Shown here one piece after another: positions 31,380 through 36,262 of a stretch of 64,000 nucleotides of DNA. Numbering within the stretch: the stretch's first letter is position 1; each line of letters opens with the position of its first letter. Source of the DNA: Candidatus Saccharimonadales bacterium (GTDB lineage: Bacteria > Patescibacteriota > Saccharimonadia > Saccharimonadales > JANWIN01); the NCBI GenBank assembly GCA_038231155.1, contig JBBRLY010000013.1:196305-260304 (forward strand). The letters run 5' to 3'. The position numbers were made by a program, and so were the translations under genes. The notes beneath the pieces are model-generated. The model did not search any database, was not told the DNA's origin, and worked only from the letters and a program-made list of their open reading frames with translations.

Positions 31380-34300
31380 ATGTCCCGATTACCAACTCCT
31401 GGTGGTGATGACGGTACCTGGGGAGATATCCTTAATAGCTTTTTAGATGTAGCCCATAACCCAGATGGCACTCTAAAAGACGTAGTTAGTAAAGATGGCA
31501 CTGATACTATTAGCGGTGCTAAGACTTTCTCAGTATCACCAACTGTACCTACCCCCACCGTCTCAGGCGATGCCACTACCAAAGCTTACGTTGATGCCAC
31601 TGCTGGTCTTGGTGCCACGGGTGCTACAGGACCAACTGGTGCCAATGGAACGACCGGTGCTACTGGAGCCACTGGTGCTGGAACTACTGGAGCAACAGGT
31701 CCAAATGGCACCACTGGAGCGACCGGAACCCAAGGTACAACCGGTGCTACTGGCGCTGGTACCACTGGAGCGACTGGCCCGACCGGAGCTAACGGTGCGT
31801 CTGGCGCGACCGGAGCTAACGGTACCACCGGTGCTACCGGACCCTCTGGTGCTACTGGTGTTGGAGTAACTGGAGCCACAGGCCCTACTGGAACTCAAGG
31901 TATAACTGGAGCTACTGGGGCTAATGGAGCTAGTGGTGCCACTGGTCCAATTGGATCAGCTGGTGGTGATACCTTCACCTATACTTTTGACAATAGTTCC
32001 AATGCTGATGCTGATCCTGGTAGTGGTAAGTTCCGGTACGATAACGCCACAGTTTCCTCAGTCACTCAAATATTCACTGACGTCTTAAACAGTAGCGCTA
32101 CTGACGTCACCGCCTGGTTGGATAGTATGGTTGGTGGAGTAGTTAAACTCTTTAGTAACTCAGACCCAACCAAGTTTGCTATCTTTAACGTTGGCTTAGT
32201 GACAACTGCAGCTGGCTACCGTAAACTCAATGTTACCTACATAACCAGTAACGGCACTCTCACCACCACCGCTGGTGATACTGACATAGCTTTTACTCCA
32301 TCCGGTCCAACCGGCCCTCCTGGTAATGCCTCTACCCAAGGTGCCACTGGAGCAACTGGCCCAGTTGGAGCTCAAGGTGCTACTGGTGCTGGAACTACTG
32401 GAGCCACAGGACCAACTGGGTCAGGCGGTAGTACTGGAGCGACTGGTGCTACTGGGTCTAGTGGAGCACAGGGCACAACTGGTGCTACTGGACCGACTGG
32501 TGGTAGTGGCGGACAAGGTACAACTGGTGCCACTGGCCCAACGGGTGGAAGTGGTGGACAAGGTAGTACCGGAGCGACTGGTGCCGGTACAACTGGTGCG
32601 ACTGGTGCCACGGGTGCCGGTACAACTGGTGCGACTGGTGCGACTGGTGCCACGGGTGCCGGCAGTACCGGGGCGACGGGACCAAGCGGCTTAACCGGTG
32701 GTTTTCATGCTGTTAGTGATGCTAACTACACTTCTGGAGCAACCGATCGAATCATTGGTTATGCAACAATCACTGCCACCCGGACTGTCACACTGCTCTC
32801 AGCTGCCAGTTATGGCGCCGGTTATCGATTAATTGTACGAGACGACTCTGGTAGTCTCAGCCCTAGTATTACTATCGTCATTACACCGAACGGCTCAGAC
32901 ACAATAAACGGCGCCAGTAACCTTACATTGGTTGTGCCATACTCTAGCCGCGAACTTGTATCGGATGGTACTAATTGGTTCTTTGACGATGGTCAAACTC
33001 GTAAGTCCACACTAACTACTAAAGGTGATATTTACGCTGCTTCTGCAGCCAGTACACCTGCACGCCTTGGTGTTGGTACTGATGGGCAATTACTACTGGC
33101 TGATTCAACTCAAACCACAGGTATAAAGTGGGGAACTAGTATTCCCGAATCATCCGTTACAAATCTGACGACCGACCTCAGTGCCGTTCAAACACAAACC
33201 GCTCTCCAGGCCGCTCAGATTAATGCCATACAGACGGCCGGAACCGGCTACTTCGTCGAGATTGGCGGTGCGCTATCACCTAATGCAACACCGACAAATT
33301 TAGATCTTGATGCTGGTGTCGACCGATTCAATCTAACAGCTGTCACCTATGCCGCCCAATCCGCCATCTCAACCACGATCGCCTCGATGGCTGATGCCAC
33401 CAATCCCAAGTGGGTAGCGGTTGAATTGAACTCGTCGGGCTTTGTCGTATTCAACCAAGGTGCCGCCTCCGCCTCGCCCGCCTTCCCAACCCCAACTGCG
33501 ACCCGGGTCGTTCATGGCTGGATCTTCATCCCCGCTAACGCCACTAACGTTGATACGTTGCTAACTATCAACAACGGGCTGGCTAAGCTAATTGACGCCC
33601 GTGTATTGGCTCCGACCTACGTGGGTTTGACGACCGTCACCAACGCCAACTACACCATCCTGACAACCGACCGTTGGGTCATCACTTCATCCACGGCATT
33701 CACGGCAGCACGCACCTGGACGCTTCCGGCTGCGAACTCGGTTCCAGGCGGGACGGTCATCTACATTTCGGACCTGGGATCGGCCACGAATCCGCCCAAC
33801 TGGATCACAATTGGACGGACCGGCTCCGATACGATCGATGGAGTGGCAGGGAACCTTACAATTGGGGTTGCCAATTTGCTGCAGATCAGGGGTTTAGTAT
33901 CAGACGGCGTATCAGCCTGGACCACGACGCTTAACTACTCTCCAGGTTCGTTGCAGGCAGCCCTTGGCGGCACTAATCAGTCAGCTGTAGCCACGGGAGA
34001 CTTGCTTTACGGCTCGGCATCGAACATTTGGTCGCGACTGGCTAAAGGCACATCGGGGCAGGTACTTACTCAGGGTGCGACTATCCCGTCGTGGTCGGCA
34101 AATGCACCAATGTATCAACACCTTCCGACCAGCGCATTGGCTGCGACGTTTGACCGCGCAGCTGTCAGTCTGGCTAATCAAACAGTTCTAACGTCGGGGA
34201 CACTTTTCCTGACAACTGTGACTCTCGTTGCAGGAGTGACCTATACGAGCATTACATTCAGATCTTCAACCACCGCACTGGGCACCGGCACCCATCAGAT

Positions 34301-34622
34301 ATTTGGTTTGTTCAATAGCTCTCGGGTTAACCTGCGCTACACCAGTGACGACACTTCAACTGCCTGGGCTGCCAATTCAACCAAGACGTTAAATTTGGCA
34401 ACAACCTACACGCCAACAGTGACCGGCGATTACTACGTCGGGATCATGGTCGCTGCGACAACTGTGCCAACGCTTACCGGTATCGCTGTAGCCGTTACTA
34501 GTATTGCGCCCACTCTTTGTGGCAATACCACTGATACCGGATTAACAAACGTTGCTTCTATGCCGAGTACCGCCGGGACAATCACGGCTGGAGTCATAAA
34601 CGTGTATGCGTGGTTGAGTTAA
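31380..34622 (+). CDS. giant tail-fibre-like protein with collagen-like tracts (fibre 2), paralog of fibre 1
   Basis: 1080 aa. The first roughly 430 aa align with fibre 1 ([33 protein letters not shown] ... [10 protein letters not shown]...[18 protein letters not shown]...[18 protein letters not shown]...[19 protein letters not shown]). The C-terminal 650 aa are unrelated to fibre 1. Confidence 0.85.
31605..31967 (+). repeat. collagen-like GXY tract 1 of fibre 2
   Basis: [29 protein letters not shown]... as uninterrupted triplets. Confidence 0.85.
32304..32701 (+). repeat. collagen-like GXY tract 2 of fibre 2, with near-perfect tandem DNA repeats
   Basis: GGTGCCGGTACAACTGGTGCGACTGGTGCCACG occurs at 32580-32612 and again directly afterwards with a 9-nt insertion. 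There is also a 45-nt [10 protein letters not shown](T/S)TGAT unit in two copies. Confidence 0.8.
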
Positions 34623-34756
34623 GATGATCACTCAGATGGTGGCGTCGGTGCGAAGACCGGGATGGGTGAAGGCGGTGCGGCTGCTAGTAAGGGCAATACC
34701 CATCAGATTCAGGTCTAAAATGCCGCGCTCAGTGTTAACTATTAATATCCAGTCAT

Positions 34757-36262
34757 ATGATTAAACAAATAGTCTTTATCGGTGACTCATTAACGGTCGG
34801 ATTTCAGCTACTCGGTGTCTCGATCGGCCAGGGCGGGAAGGGCGGCTGGGTTGAGCTGGCAGCTGAACTTTTAAATGATGCCCCGACAGTGGGACCGCTT
34901 CTCGGCACCGGCATTCGACCGGTTTCCGGTGGTTGGGTCAGTCTTACTGAATGGAGTTTTGCGGGCAGTTGGACAGCCGTTACTAACAGTAATGCCTTCG
35001 ATAAAATGCCCTATAACTCAATTAAGTATGCCAATGGTGCTACTAACATTGCCACCTTTACGGTCTCCACCCATTGGCGCCCGGCCGTTGGCTTTTGTAT
35101 CTACTATATTGACTACGCCAGCGGTGGTAATTGGCAGTACCGGATTAATGGCGGCAGCTGGACGAACATGGGCCAGACCATTCTAAATGACGATAAATTG
35201 GCCAAATTTTATGTGGCGTCGGCCGTTTCGCCTGGCCAAACCATCGATATTCGGGGGTTCGACGGGACGGCAGATTGCGGCGTATTGCCAGCCGGCATCG
35301 AATTATTCTATAGCGATCCTAGGGTGGCCACTCAGGGCTTGATTGTCCATAATCTGGCCGTTGGGGGAACTTTCATGAGTCAATTATTTCCCAGTGCTCC
35401 GGCCGATCCGTTGGCTTTTTTTGATTCGGTCAAACTTGGCACGGGTTCGCCCATCACCAATTCCCCCAATAGTGGGACGTTTATTATGCACATCAATGAC
35501 GTGGTATTTAACAACGTCGGTCAATGGGCAACTAATCATACATCGTTTTATAATCGCGTCTCGCCGCTGGGTCCGGTCGGCTTTATTAGCCCCTGGGAAA
35601 ATGGCGCCGGGCCGTCCAGTTTTGTCACCAAGGTGACCAATTACACCGTTCTCACAAGTGACAACGTTTTTGGGTTTAACTTTAATGGCACTAGCCTAAC
35701 TGCCACCTTACCAGCAACCCCCCCTGCACCAGGACTTATTTCCTGGTATGTCATCATTATCAATCTTAATGCCAGCGCTCTGACCATTAATCCGAATAGC
35801 AATACGTTAACTGGGTCGAGCACAGTGGCTCAGAATCAGGTTGTCCAAATCACCTCCAATGGCACCAAATACACTGTTAGTACCAATGGAGCCTACAATC
35901 AAGCCAACTTTCGGGCGTCAACTAAGTCATCGGCTCAATCCCTGGGTGCTCAAATTTTTGATATTTATGACGCCTGGAACGCCAATGGCTGGGGGAATGT
36001 CGTCGGCACTCAGAGCGCGGCCCTGATAGCTCAGGGCTTTACCATCCCCGATGATAGTGGCACCCATCCCACCCAAGCCGCTCACTTAGATTTAGCAGTT
36101 CGTATATATTGGTTTTTGCGTAATCAAATCCTCGGAATTAGCAATGAACCTGCAGCTTATTCAGTCGGAGCAAAACAAGTTGCATCCAGTTATACTGGCA
36201 GTAAACCAGCGGTTGCTTATACTTCTAGTTTACCAATTTCGTTATTACCGCTAGATCATTGA
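34757..36262 (+). CDS. SGNH/GDSL-type hydrolase fused to a fibre-type module
   Basis: 501 aa. The N-terminal block IVFIGDSLTVGF gives the GDS catalytic Ser. An internal segment (nt 35621-35885), VTKVTNYTVLTSDN...TATLPATPPAP...IIINLNASALTINPNSNTLTGSSTVAQNQVVQITSNGTKY, matches fibre 1 at nt 26701-26965. A late DSGTHP may be block V (DxxH). Confidence 0.72.
   Translation: MIKQIVFIGDSLTVGFQLLGVSIGQGGKGGWVELAAELLNDAPTVGPLLGTGIRPVSGGWVSLTEWSFAGSWTAVTNSNAFDKMPYNSIKYANGATNIATFTVSTHWRPAVGFCIYYIDYASGGNWQYRINGGSWTNMGQTILNDDKLAKFYVASAVSPGQTIDIRGFDGTADCGVLPAGIELFYSDPRVATQGLIVHNLAVGGTFMSQLFPSAPADPLAFFDSVKLGTGSPITNSPNSGTFIMHINDVVFNNVGQWATNHTSFYNRVSPLGPVGFISPWENGAGPSSFVTKVTNYTVLTSDNVFGFNFNGTSLTATLPATPPAPGLISWYVIIINLNASALTINPNSNTLTGSSTVAQNQVVQITSNGTKYTVSTNGAYNQANFRASTKSSAQSLGAQIFDIYDAWNANGWGNVVGTQSAALIAQGFTIPDDSGTHPTQAAHLDLAVRIYWFLRNQILGISNEPAAYSVGAKQVASSYTGSKPAVAYTSSLPISLLPLDH

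Follow-up and report, generated by a model that had tools for sequence, protein, structure and literature searches.

The fibre locus

The window, i.e., the whole stretch of 64,000 nucleotides that was analysed, belongs to a cellular Saccharibacteria chromosome and not to a phage. Its fibre locus has the order tatC, fibre 1, fibre 2, an SGNH/GDSL carbohydrate-esterase gene (SGNH) and a glycosyltransferase gene (GT), with Nramp further along. The same synteny (tatC, fibre 1, fibre 2, SGNH, GT, later Nramp) is kept in a distant relative, L002, and the flanks of the two loci have about 70% nucleotide identity. The fibre locus is a conserved chromosomal one, and no further phage genes were seen near it. 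The features are as follows:

25432..30804, + strand: fibre 1, a 1790-aa collagen-like fibre protein, paralogue of fibre 2
31380..33146, + strand: native proximal part of fibre 2 (aa 1-589), GC3 0.316 vs 0.307 expected, z = 0.5
33138..33351, + strand: left junction (maximum-likelihood change point 33165), 2ΔlnL = 68
33147..33629, + strand: fibre 2 module A (aa 590-750), foreign composition, GC3 0.57, z = 7.4
33630..33944, + strand: fibre 2 module B, foreign composition, GC3 0.65, z = 7.8
33945..34622, + strand: fibre 2 linker 2 and module C, foreign composition, GC3 0.51, z = 6.5
34623..34756, + strand: intergenic spacer within the patch, non-coding, 134 nt, GC 0.515
34757..36085, + strand: SGNH gene, part of foreign composition (aa 1-443), GC3 about 0.52
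35612..35899, + strand: NYT-domain insertion in SGNH (aa 286-381; alignment A1)
36071..36095, + strand: right junction (maximum-likelihood change point 36086), 2ΔlnL = 58 with GT included
36086..36262, + strand: 3′ tail of SGNH of native composition (aa 444-501), GC3 0.19
36360..37526, + strand: GT1-family glycosyltransferase, right flank of native composition and conserved anchor of the locus

Fibre 1 matches Pfam Collagen (E 8e-28) and PHROG tail-fibre families, and has about 68% nucleotide identity to the N-terminal part of fibre 2. In the proximal part of fibre 2 (Pfam Collagen, E 1e-16), the N-terminal domain and a globular domain are conserved; there are also two collagen-like G-X-Y tracts, a first NYT domain and a linker motif (33021-33134). 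Module A, which follows, has 72% amino acid identity to the copy in L004 (a contig of 66% GC) and 67% to that in the syntenic L002. Module B is a second copy of the NYT domain (about 95 amino acids), internally similar to aa 442-532 and 44% identical in amino acid sequence to the tail spike of Pseudanabaena phage Pam5. Module C is the C-terminal jelly-roll tip and the presumed binding domain. Foldseek matches of its AF2 model (pLDDT 80 overall, >90 in the fold core) include a collagen-repeat protein of Streptomyces phage BRock (E 9e-10), actinophage minor tail proteins, the central fibre of Mycobacteriophage Douge (8zdp, E 5e-4) and CBM6/35 domains. The receptor-binding role presumed for this tip is drawn from similarity of fold.

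The SGNH protein has a GDS block I (Ser11 at 34787-34789), a CBM-like β-sandwich insert at aa ~60-195, an ND block III at aa 247-248 and a catalytic His437 at 36065-36067; G9, D10, S11, N247, D248 and H437 are invariant or near-invariant among 29 homologues. Position His-3 has a Ser instead of an Asp, and an Asp sits at His-4. The best match of the AF2 model is the peptidoglycan O-acetylesterase Ape1 of C. jejuni (8gkd, E 1.6e-9), the next being the CE2 esterase 2waa. At the sequence level there was no match to characterized enzymes (Pfam below threshold, no PHROG or NCBIfam match). The NYT insertion is missing in all 28 of the 28 aligned homologues; it has 51% amino acid identity to aa 418-512 of fibre 1, with no match at the DNA level, and its GC3 (0.495) is like that of the rest of the patch. 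The C-terminal peptide is conserved and predicted to be disordered (pLDDT <50 for aa 466-501), and its YTGxKxxVAY motif is kept among homologues.

The GT (Pfam Glycos_transf_1, E 9e-18; GC3 0.28-0.31, z = -0.6) has 79-88% amino acid identity in the Saccharibacteria relatives L002, L015, L018 and L020. The nearest relatives of the GT (L002, L018/L019 and L020, 83-88%) lie in sequences with a GC content of 0.43-0.48. The slot 5′ of the GT is hypervariable: the GT proteins of L018 and L019 are identical, whereas the cargo upstream of them differs, and in L018/L019 and L020 other genes occupy the slot.

Base composition of the patch

Within the locus, the stretch 33150-36090 has a GC content of 0.525 compared with 0.396 in the window outside 25-36.3 kb, as a preliminary description of this DNA had proposed. 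The values given there for single 60-nt lines were essentially right, being reproduced for 33421-33480 (58.3%) and slightly too high for 33721-33780 (61.7%, not 63%) and 35221-35280 (63.3%, not 65%). However, such lines range from 37 to 65%, not from 52 to 65% throughout. Nor is the sequence before 33060 a background of 40-45%: the mean is about 46% over 32700-33150, and at 31.5-32.7 kb, where collagen-like Gly-Ala-Thr codons have a GC2 of 0.8-0.96 and a normal GC3, it is 55-72%.

Where proteins are rich in Ala, Gly, Thr and Pro, the GC content can thus be raised while codon choice is unchanged, and this accounts for fibre 2 at 31.5-32.7 kb and for fibre 1, whose GC richness (GC 0.477, GC2 0.62) is due only to amino acid composition (GC3 0.308, z = -0.6) and which was used as the control for native composition. 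As the cause of the patch, the same explanation is refuted by GC3 conditioned on amino acids and can be given practically no weight: the value rises from 0.31 in the genome to about 0.55 in the patch. For aa 590-1080 of fibre 2, the observed GC3 is 0.56 where 0.30 is expected (z = 12.2), and for aa 1-285 of SGNH it is 0.52 (z = 8.3; z ~8-8.8 for the SGNH part of the patch, and 8.3, 4.2 and 3.6 in its three sub-segments). Among 43 background genes the standard deviation of z is 1.28 and the maximum 3.6, and no background window of 100 codons exceeds a GC3 of 0.46. Over 33147-36085, GC2 is ordinary (0.44-0.64) and GC3 is 0.5-0.74; moreover, the non-coding spacer is GC-rich as well (0.515, vs 0.22-0.38 in neighbouring spacers). 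Thus, the step in GC3, which the preliminary description had made the test of its proposal, is present, large and significant, and is unexplained by amino acid composition.

Position of the borders

The borders were taken from maximum-likelihood change points, with 2-lnL support intervals. Both lie inside genes, as had been suspected, one in fibre 2 (33165) and the other in SGNH (36086), and they agree with the limits of 33150 and 36090 given in the preliminary description. The left border is at the conserved motif that opens module A, and the start of the patch coincides with the start of this module (aa ~588, nt 33147); the stretch 33147-33221 has 77% nucleotide identity to the fibre 2 gene of the syntenic L002. 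In raw GC the left step is weak (0.46 to 0.55, 2ΔlnL = 10), because collagen-type Gly-Ala-Thr codons raise the GC content upstream. From there the patch extends through the tip and the spacer into the SGNH gene until just beyond His437, the right border being within the conserved HLDLAVRIYWFLRNQIL helix of SGNH (alignment A1). On either side the composition is native: codon usage in the proximal part of fibre 2 and in the last 58 codons of SGNH (z = -1.7 for aa 449-501) is closest to that of the window background.

These borders bear on the proposal that the GC3 shift arose by selection acting on codon choice or on properties of the mRNA, e.g., for high expression of tip and esterase. The genes share one orientation and are probably transcribed together, and nothing specific speaks for such selection. 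The borders are inside two genes and not at gene or operon borders, the 5′ half and the 3′ tail of the same transcript are native, and the spacer is affected whereas fibre 1 and the GT are not, all of which makes this proposal hardly credible.

The sequence is metagenome-derived and has conserved motifs at both junctions, and so might be a chimera in which an assembler joined 3 kb of a co-occurring, higher-GC Saccharibacterium at conserved sequences. This is very unlikely. A separate, independent Logan assembly (L001, from SRR24807096) is 100% identical over 28711-39127, i.e., 10.4 kb across both junctions, and is reported in 2 samples. Furthermore, a double chimera would have had to lead back to the original genome with the reading frames of two genes preserved, and the stretch shared with L002, the only syntenic relative sampled, is 75 nt at 77% identity, which is too weak for k-mer mis-joins.

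The cassette in other genomes and its probable donor

Module A, a variable jelly-roll tip and an SGNH esterase are adjacent in nine other loci (L002, L004, L007, L015, L017, L022, L024, L025 and L027), which include Saccharibacteria chromosomes and phage contigs. This recurrence, together with the extent of the patch from the start of module A to just beyond His437, supports the earlier suggestion that fibre 2 tip and esterase form one cassette. A donor of higher GC content had also been suggested, and all sampled carriers of the cassette are above this genome in GC content (0.456-0.656). In L015, L017 and L024 (45-51% GC) the GC3 of the cassette genes equals their own background, and the GC3 mismatch is thus specific to the present, low-GC genome.

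In codon-usage likelihood the patch fits best to reference sets of mid GC content (50-52%), the fibre 2 part to L016 and the SGNH part to L015; the fit exceeds that to the window background by about 0.15-0.19 bit per codon (figures for L015), and the phage sets of 62-65% GC fit less well than the mid-GC sets. The direct donor was most probably a Saccharimonadales genome of mid GC content (about 47-52%) or a phage of such a genome. Phages of 62-66% GC also belong to the wider pool of the cassette. Module A is closer to high-GC, phage-like copies (68-72% identity) than to the Saccharibacterial copies of L015, L017 and L024 (50-56%), whereas the flanking GT is 79-88% identical to its Saccharibacterial homologues. 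Neither the donor nor a near-identical allele was found among the sequences compared, the best amino acid identities being 72% for module A, 43% for modules B and C and 57% for SGNH. When the body and tail of SGNH were aligned separately there was no clear change of nearest relative, a comparison of low power as the tail has only 58 amino acids. The spread of GC3 between modules (0.51-0.65) would likewise be compatible with two or more imports.

Perhaps the patch had no higher-GC donor, and the locus is a recombination hot spot at which GC-biased gene conversion or another local mutational bias enriched the often exchanged distal part in situ. The hypervariability of the slot would suit such a process, as would two observations elsewhere: in L002, GC3 equals the background gene by gene, yet the module A segment is raised (0.57, with a genome background of about 0.44), and in L016 SGNH and two downstream genes have a GC3 of 0.59-0.66 compared with 0.36-0.50 in the rest of the contig. 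However, in L015, L017, L022 and L024 the GC3 of module A (0.35-0.49) does not exceed the background; the shift here, from 0.31 to 0.55, is very large, its borders are as sharp as 25-200 nt, and it includes the spacer; fibre 1, equally modular and repetitive, stays native; and the full codon usage, beyond GC3, fits real mid-GC Saccharimonadales genomes. Enrichment in situ is therefore improbable.

Probable exchange of a specificity cassette

The explanation that best fits these findings, to which we assign a probability of about three in four, is that the DNA at approximately 33165-36086 is of foreign compositional origin and replaced its allelic counterpart by homologous recombination with a higher-GC carrier of the same locus. 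The synteny with L002 and the nucleotide identity of the flanks imply that a resident allele was there for replacement. In this low-GC Saccharibacterium, whose fibre locus is a conserved chromosomal one, the resident allele of the specificity cassette would have given way to one made up of the distal fibre 2 modules (module A, the NYT domain and the jelly-roll tip), the spacer, and the body of SGNH through the catalytic histidine. One crossover would have been at the conserved boundary of linker and module A in the fibre gene, and the other where the esterase gene encodes its conserved C-terminal helix, so that the native collagen-like stalk and the tail of the esterase would have been retained. 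Homologous recombination is the most likely mechanism; no integrase, att sites or flanking repeats were found at the patch.

Distal parts of tail fibres in P2, Mu and T-even phages have reportedly been swapped by recombination between conserved motifs. As in mosaic phage tail-fibre and adhesin genes, the proximal part here is conserved and the distal, specificity-bearing modules would have been exchanged, a short and conserved linker motif marks the junction, unrelated genomes share the modules patchily, and the tip has a phage fibre fold. The present gene differs in being in a syntenic locus of a cellular Saccharibacteria chromosome with no other phage genes nearby, and the swapped unit would continue via the spacer into the gene that follows. 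G-X-Y tracts followed by a C-terminal jelly-roll are also seen in the collagen-like minor tail proteins that actinobacteriophages of Streptomyces, Gordonia and Mycobacterium encode. Structurally, module C matches these proteins best (E down to 9e-10, TM ~0.6), and PHROG tail-fibre families match the collagen parts here. Sequence identity to the minor tail proteins is, however, only 14-22%, the context here is chromosomal, and the N-terminal domain and middle modules have no annotated phage counterpart.

Some phage tail-associated SGNH esterases deacetylate surface glycans, examples being gp63.1 of phage G7C and the acetylesterase tailspikes of Vi phages. The present protein shares the SGNH catalytic blocks with these and with Ape1, and with Ape1 also a CBM-like β-sandwich inserted into the catalytic domain (Foldseek E 1.6e-9); in phage contigs L004, L007, L008, L022, L025 and L027 an SGNH gene is likewise directly 3′ of fibre genes. 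It differs from them in its extra, fibre-type NYT domain and in the Ser at His-3 and Asp at His-4. The fibre tip and this enzyme, which resembles carbohydrate O-acetylesterases, may constitute a matched pair for binding and receptor modification.

In the switching of O-antigen or capsule loci, surface cassettes of atypical composition are replaced via recombination in flanking conserved genes. The present locus is similar in having an atypical block between native conserved sequences, with no integrase, att sites or flanking repeats, and a slot whose content is hypervariable between strains. It differs in that the crossovers would be intragenic, giving rise to chimeric proteins, and in that the block is GC-richer, not AT-richer, than the genome.

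Thus, the phenomenon itself is an ordinary one, a known mode of exchanging binding specificity, and the interest is in its setting: the locus would be a new and clean example of such exchange in a block of fibre tip and esterase.

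Composition of the patch

A GC-rich segment of approximately 3 kb (the patch) begins inside the second of two collagen-like fibre genes, crosses the spacer and ends inside the SGNH gene that follows. The features concerned are:

24037–25011, tatC
25432–30804 (+), fibre 1 (1790 aa)
31380–34622 (+), fibre 2 (1080 aa)
33165–36086, the patch: distal half of fibre 2, spacer (34623–34756) and body of the SGNH gene
34757–36262 (+), SGNH gene
36360–37526 (+), GT1 glycosyltransferase (GT)
37558–39837 (−), RCC1-repeat protein

The preliminary description had drawn the borders of this patch at 33150 and 36090. 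The maximum-likelihood change points are at 33165 (support 33138–33351) and 36086 (support 36071–36095), i.e., no more than 15 nt (left) and 4 nt (right) from the proposed borders, and the GC contents quoted for single 60-nt lines were essentially correct on recount. The surroundings, however, are not the plain background they were taken for: raw GC is 55–72% at 31.5–32.7 kb, in the collagen tracts of fibre 2, and 47.7% across the whole of fibre 1. The window background has a GC content of 0.396, and its genes have a GC3 of approximately 0.31. In the collagen tracts GC2 is 0.8–0.96 and GC3 only 0.18–0.40; the GC richness of fibre 1 and of the fibre 2 tracts is purely a matter of amino-acid composition (Gly/Ala/Thr codons). 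Because the collagen tracts are GC-rich with normal GC3, raw-GC scans of this locus are misleading unless GC3 is considered.

GC3 was conditioned on the encoded amino acids, with synonymous preferences taken from 43 background genes, for which z has a standard deviation of 1.28 and a maximum of 3.6. From approximately 33.15 kb, GC2 is ordinary and GC3 increases to 0.44–0.74; given the amino acids, the GC3 of the patch corresponds to z = 12.2 and 8.8. The abrupt step is real, and amino-acid composition alone, which is the correct explanation for the collagen regions, is refuted for the patch.

GC3 of segments of the locus, conditioned on the encoded amino acids (values as available)
Segment; GC3 observed; GC3 expected; z
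Fibre 1; –; –; −0.6
Fibre 2 aa 1–589; –; –; +0.5
Fibre 2 aa 590–1080; 0.56; 0.30; 12.2
SGNH aa 1–285; 0.52; –; 8.3
SGNH aa 449–501; 0.19; –; −1.7
GT; –; –; −0.6

The anomaly also covers non-coding DNA, the spacer having a GC content of 0.515 compared with 0.22–0.38 in neighbouring spacers, and it starts and stops without regard to gene borders. Expression-linked codon selection as the cause of the GC3 shift conflicts with borders that fall inside genes and with the GC-rich spacer.

Elsewhere in the window, the next-strongest GC3 outliers are two ORFs at its right end, 61988–63235 (+) and 63443–63943 (−), with GC3 of 0.38 and 0.47 (z = 3.5 and 4.5). They may represent another short stretch of foreign DNA, or else spurious ORFs.

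Borders of the patch

On the left, GC3 steps up right where module A of fibre 2 opens (a 13-letter motif, nt 33147). This opening motif is kept, with 77% nucleotide identity over 75 nt, in L002, a contig of an “uncultured Candidatus Saccharibacteria bacterium”. The right change point is located 7 codons after His437 of the SGNH protein, in the conserved helix HLDLAVRIYWFLRNQIL, and the last 58 codons of the gene, including a conserved C-terminal tail that is probably disordered, have native composition. Both junctions are 100% identical in an independent Logan assembly of the same sequence, which makes it unlikely that the patch was joined to its flanks by chimeric assembly.

The borders themselves carry no direct repeats, the only repeats found being those of the collagen tracts, and no att sites, promoters or terminators above shuffled expectation. 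There is no integrase or reverse transcriptase among the Pfam-scanned ORFs around the locus, and the nearest tRNAs are 8–20 kb away. The marks of an integrative island, a site-specific cassette or the target of a diversity-generating system (DGR), such as flanking repeats, an integrase, a reverse transcriptase or template/variable repeat pairs, were thus looked for and not found.

Setting of the locus

The 64-kb window is cellular chromosome and not phage. The locus is surrounded by tatC, the GT, the RCC1-repeat protein, Nramp, a sortase, a histidine kinase and three tRNAs; for 10 kb or more to either side there are no capsid, tail or integrase genes, and a phage or prophage context, with virion genes adjoining the fibres, was not found at the locus. 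Its homologues and a syntenic locus assign the window to the Saccharibacteria (CPR). In L002 the gene order is tatC, fibre 1, fibre 2, SGNH and GT, and Nramp follows at some distance; nucleotide identity to the window is approximately 70% in the housekeeping flanks, and the GT is 76% identical. Saccharibacteria also supply the closest homologues of the window's GT, with 79–88% identity. Searchable literature yielded no description of a collagen-like fibre/esterase locus in Saccharibacteria.

The RCC1 protein (759 aa; Pfam RCC1-like domain, E 1e-230) is made up of little else than RCC1 repeats. Its gene follows the GT, ahead of the next conserved genes, and L002 has no equivalent of it there. 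The gap between the fibre genes (30805–31379, 575 nt) is AT-rich (GC 0.30) and includes an 89-aa ORF (30806–31075) without a family match.

The slot upstream of the GT is plastic. Two metagenome contigs (L018 1–10000 and L019 1–4073) share one and the same GT protein, with 85% identity to that of the window, preceded by wholly different genes: in one, a short collagen-like fibre and small genes; in the other, a 1243-aa DUF2341/Laminin_G_3 protein. The nearest GT relatives of the window have different cargo in this slot, which is hypervariable at strain level.

Modules of the fibres

Both fibres contain collagen-like G-X-Y tracts, with matches to Pfam Collagen (E 1e-16 for fibre 2) and to PHROG tail-fibre families (E 5e-42). 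By homology, the C-terminal half of fibre 2 comprises three modules: module A (aa ~588–750), an NYT domain (~750–855) and a C-terminal module C (~870–1080). A conserved linker motif of 38 letters precedes module A, and a related motif precedes module C. The NYT domain (~95 aa) has further copies: one nearer the N-terminus of fibre 2, two in fibre 1 and one, unique to this copy of the esterase, inserted in the SGNH protein.

Module C is modelled with high confidence as a jelly roll. In structure it comes closest to collagen-repeat proteins and minor tail proteins from phages of Streptomyces, Gordonia and Mycobacterium (E down to 9e-10); other top matches are the central fibre of Mycobacteriophage Douge, the tail tip of Bxb1, and CBM6/35 modules. 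With fibrous repeats and a predicted globular C-terminal tip, fibre 2 resembles a phage tail fibre in its fold, and the likeness of module C to CBM6/35 and phage tips makes it a putative binder of a surface receptor. By sequence, the C-terminal half of fibre 2 (aa 441–1080) has no match in the PDB, and its individual modules have none in NCBIfam or PHROG; tblastn of the C-terminal half against a cultured-phage database gave two weak domain matches, in Micromonospora phage pMLP1 and Pseudanabaena phage Pam5.

Both fibres begin (25432 and 31380) with a conserved M-x-R-L-P-x-P-G-G-D-D-G-x-W-G motif. By eye, no signal peptide is evident at the N-termini of the fibres and the esterase, though this chromosomal locus adjoins tatC. 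Fibre 1 has an internal direct repeat of 260 nt (27539–27798 and 28481–28740, 90.8% identity) that encodes the same segment twice, which points to a recent intragenic duplication. A PHROG 2647 (“head decoration”) domain is common to fibre 1 (aa ~1136–1345, 28800–29460) and to a fibre-like protein encoded at 11217–12716 of L022, a viral contig of 46.5% GC; therefore, several different modules are shared between the chromosomal fibres and this phage.

The SGNH esterase

The protein downstream of fibre 2, one of a family of ~400 aa, is assigned to the SGNH/GDSL hydrolase superfamily on its conserved blocks I (GDS), II (G), III (GxND) and V (DxxH), with the catalytic Ser and His, and on profile matches and predicted fold. 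Across 29 sequences G9, D10 and S11 are at least 90% conserved, and G52, N247, D248 and H437 are invariant; in the present copy a serine (Ser434) occupies the position three before the histidine, and Asp433 is one position earlier. The GDS block lies directly at the N-terminus encoded from 34757. The match to Pfam Lipase_GDSL (E 0.003, 18.1 bits) is under the 23.6 cut-off, and PF13472 is present in several of the homologues. The best match of an AF2 model (core pLDDT >90) is Campylobacter jejuni Ape1 (8gkd, E 1.6e-9), a peptidoglycan O-acetylesterase of SGNH type into which a CBM is inserted; a CE2 esterase (2waa, E 1.3e-5) also matches.

The NYT insert (35612–35899, SGNH aa 286–381, ~95 aa) occupies a loop, and none of the 28 aligned homologues has it. 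With 51% protein identity to fibre 1 aa 418–512, it is a case of a domain shuffled between fibre and companion enzyme. Derivation from fibre 1 within this genome was ruled out, as there is no DNA-level match and the GC3 of the insert is foreign, like that of the patch, and not native.

Close relatives of this SGNH protein were found neither by profile scans of genome contigs (1 locus) and metagenome contigs (6 loci) nor by tblastn against the cultured-phage database, which gave no match; an exact-protein look-up returned the same sequence only and no other allele.

Recurrence of the cassette

Nine further loci have module A, variable tip and SGNH side by side: in Saccharibacteria chromosomes (L002, L015, L017 and L024; GC 0.46–0.51), and in phage or phage-like contigs of mid GC (L022, 0.465) or high GC (L004, L007, L025 and L027, 0.64–0.66). 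Signs of phage include an integrase in L007, several packed collagen-like tail-fibre genes in L022, and a tail tube protein in L008, a related SGNH-bearing contig. By identity and neighbour joining, the module A copies of the window and L002 fall among the high-GC phage-like copies (68–72%), compared with 50–56% to those of L015, L017 and L024. Since module A of the low-GC window groups with high-GC phage-like copies, the pool of cassettes crosses GC classes. Comparison of the SGNH body with the tail revealed no clear switch of nearest relative.

A gene order shared with L007 (fibre, fibre, SGNH, GT) was considered and dropped: its GT is unrelated to that of the window (E 0.22), and outside module A its fibres have only collagen tracts in common with those of the window. 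One protein of L007 that was compared with the cultured-phage database had no match there.

In the mid-GC genomes L015, L017 and L024 the GC3 of the cassette equals that of the genome, and in L002 it does so at the level of whole genes; compared with these, the strong mismatch is found in the present low-GC genome only. In L016, an NCBI contig of 52% GC, an SGNH homologue and the two next genes (131–2769) have a GC3 of 0.59–0.66 and the rest 0.36–0.50, a parallel compositional patch tied to the same esterase family.

A real alternative to import is that GC-biased conversion raised the GC3 of the patch in situ. The GC3-rich SGNH block of L016 and the module A segment of L002, where GC3 is raised to 0.57 above a background of 0.44, are parallel hints in its favour; it leaves unexplained, however, why L015, L017, L022 and L024 have no excess, why the borders are sharp, and why the patch matches real mid-GC codon usage.

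Donor and mechanism

The native segments are best fit, by codon-usage likelihood, by the window background. The patch prefers the codon usage of other genomes: mid-GC sets fit best (L015, 50% GC; contig L016, 52%), and both the window background and phages of 62–65% GC fit worse. The GARP/FYMINK ratio of SGNH is 1.05–1.16, compared with 1.07–1.12 in mid- and low-GC homologues and 1.5–2.1 in high-GC homologues. From codon usage and this ratio together, we infer that the direct donor was another Saccharimonadales lineage or its phage, of approximately 47–52% GC; ultimately the DNA may have come from a high-GC source and ameliorated since. The import of fibre 2 tip and esterase as one cassette from a higher-GC source, as originally proposed, is supported by the mid-GC best fit of the codon usage and by recurrence in nine loci. 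Neither the donor nor a native allele in close relatives was found; the best identities are 43–72% at the amino-acid level, and the exact sequence was found in one copy only. L002 was rejected as donor, as the patch is no more similar to it (65–77% nucleotide identity in short pieces) than the flanks are (70–76%).

The simplest mechanism would be replacement of a resident allele by double-crossover homologous recombination, because the borders lie in conserved sequence, relatives have a resident copy, the fibre stalk and the 3′ tail of SGNH are native, and there are no flanking repeats, integrase or att sites. Such an event would have retained the native fibre stalk and the native 3′ tail of SGNH, and swapped the binding and catalytic bodies. 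This suggests to us a functional logic, in which the retained ends are attachment or adapter parts.

Significance

Distal fibre modules are known to be swapped at conserved linkers, esterases to be encoded beside fibres, and surface-structure cassettes to have atypical composition; the patch adds a very clean new example of these established phenomena. It is an intragenic cassette replacement of textbook quality, with crossovers mapped to 25–200 nt and a unit independently defined by its recurrence in nine loci. Less expected is where it occurs: the locus lies in the chromosome of an episymbiotic CPR bacterium, is conserved and not part of a prophage, and has fibre and esterase modules in common with phage tail-fibre clusters, including those of high GC.

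The locus itself (tatC, two collagen-like fibres, SGNH esterase and GT) is conserved in Saccharibacteria and was previously unannotated. So far, type IV pili and a small number of adhesins are all that has been implicated in the host specificity of episymbiotic CPR bacteria (PMC10633639), and this locus is a concrete candidate determinant of host or surface specificity. A bolder reading, which we regard as rather improbable, is that Saccharibacteria, obligate epibionts of Actinobacteria, keep a domesticated chromosomal system of collagen-like phage tail fibres and a glycan or peptidoglycan O-acetylesterase to recognise and process the host surface, its cassette having come from a high-GC, probably actinobacterial, phage pool. 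This reading would agree with the sharing of the cassette with phage contigs of 62–66% GC, the fold of the tip, which is that of actinophage minor tail proteins, and the lack of signal peptides in the fibres and the esterase. If it were true, the GC-rich patch would be the footprint of a host-range switch by the epibiont.
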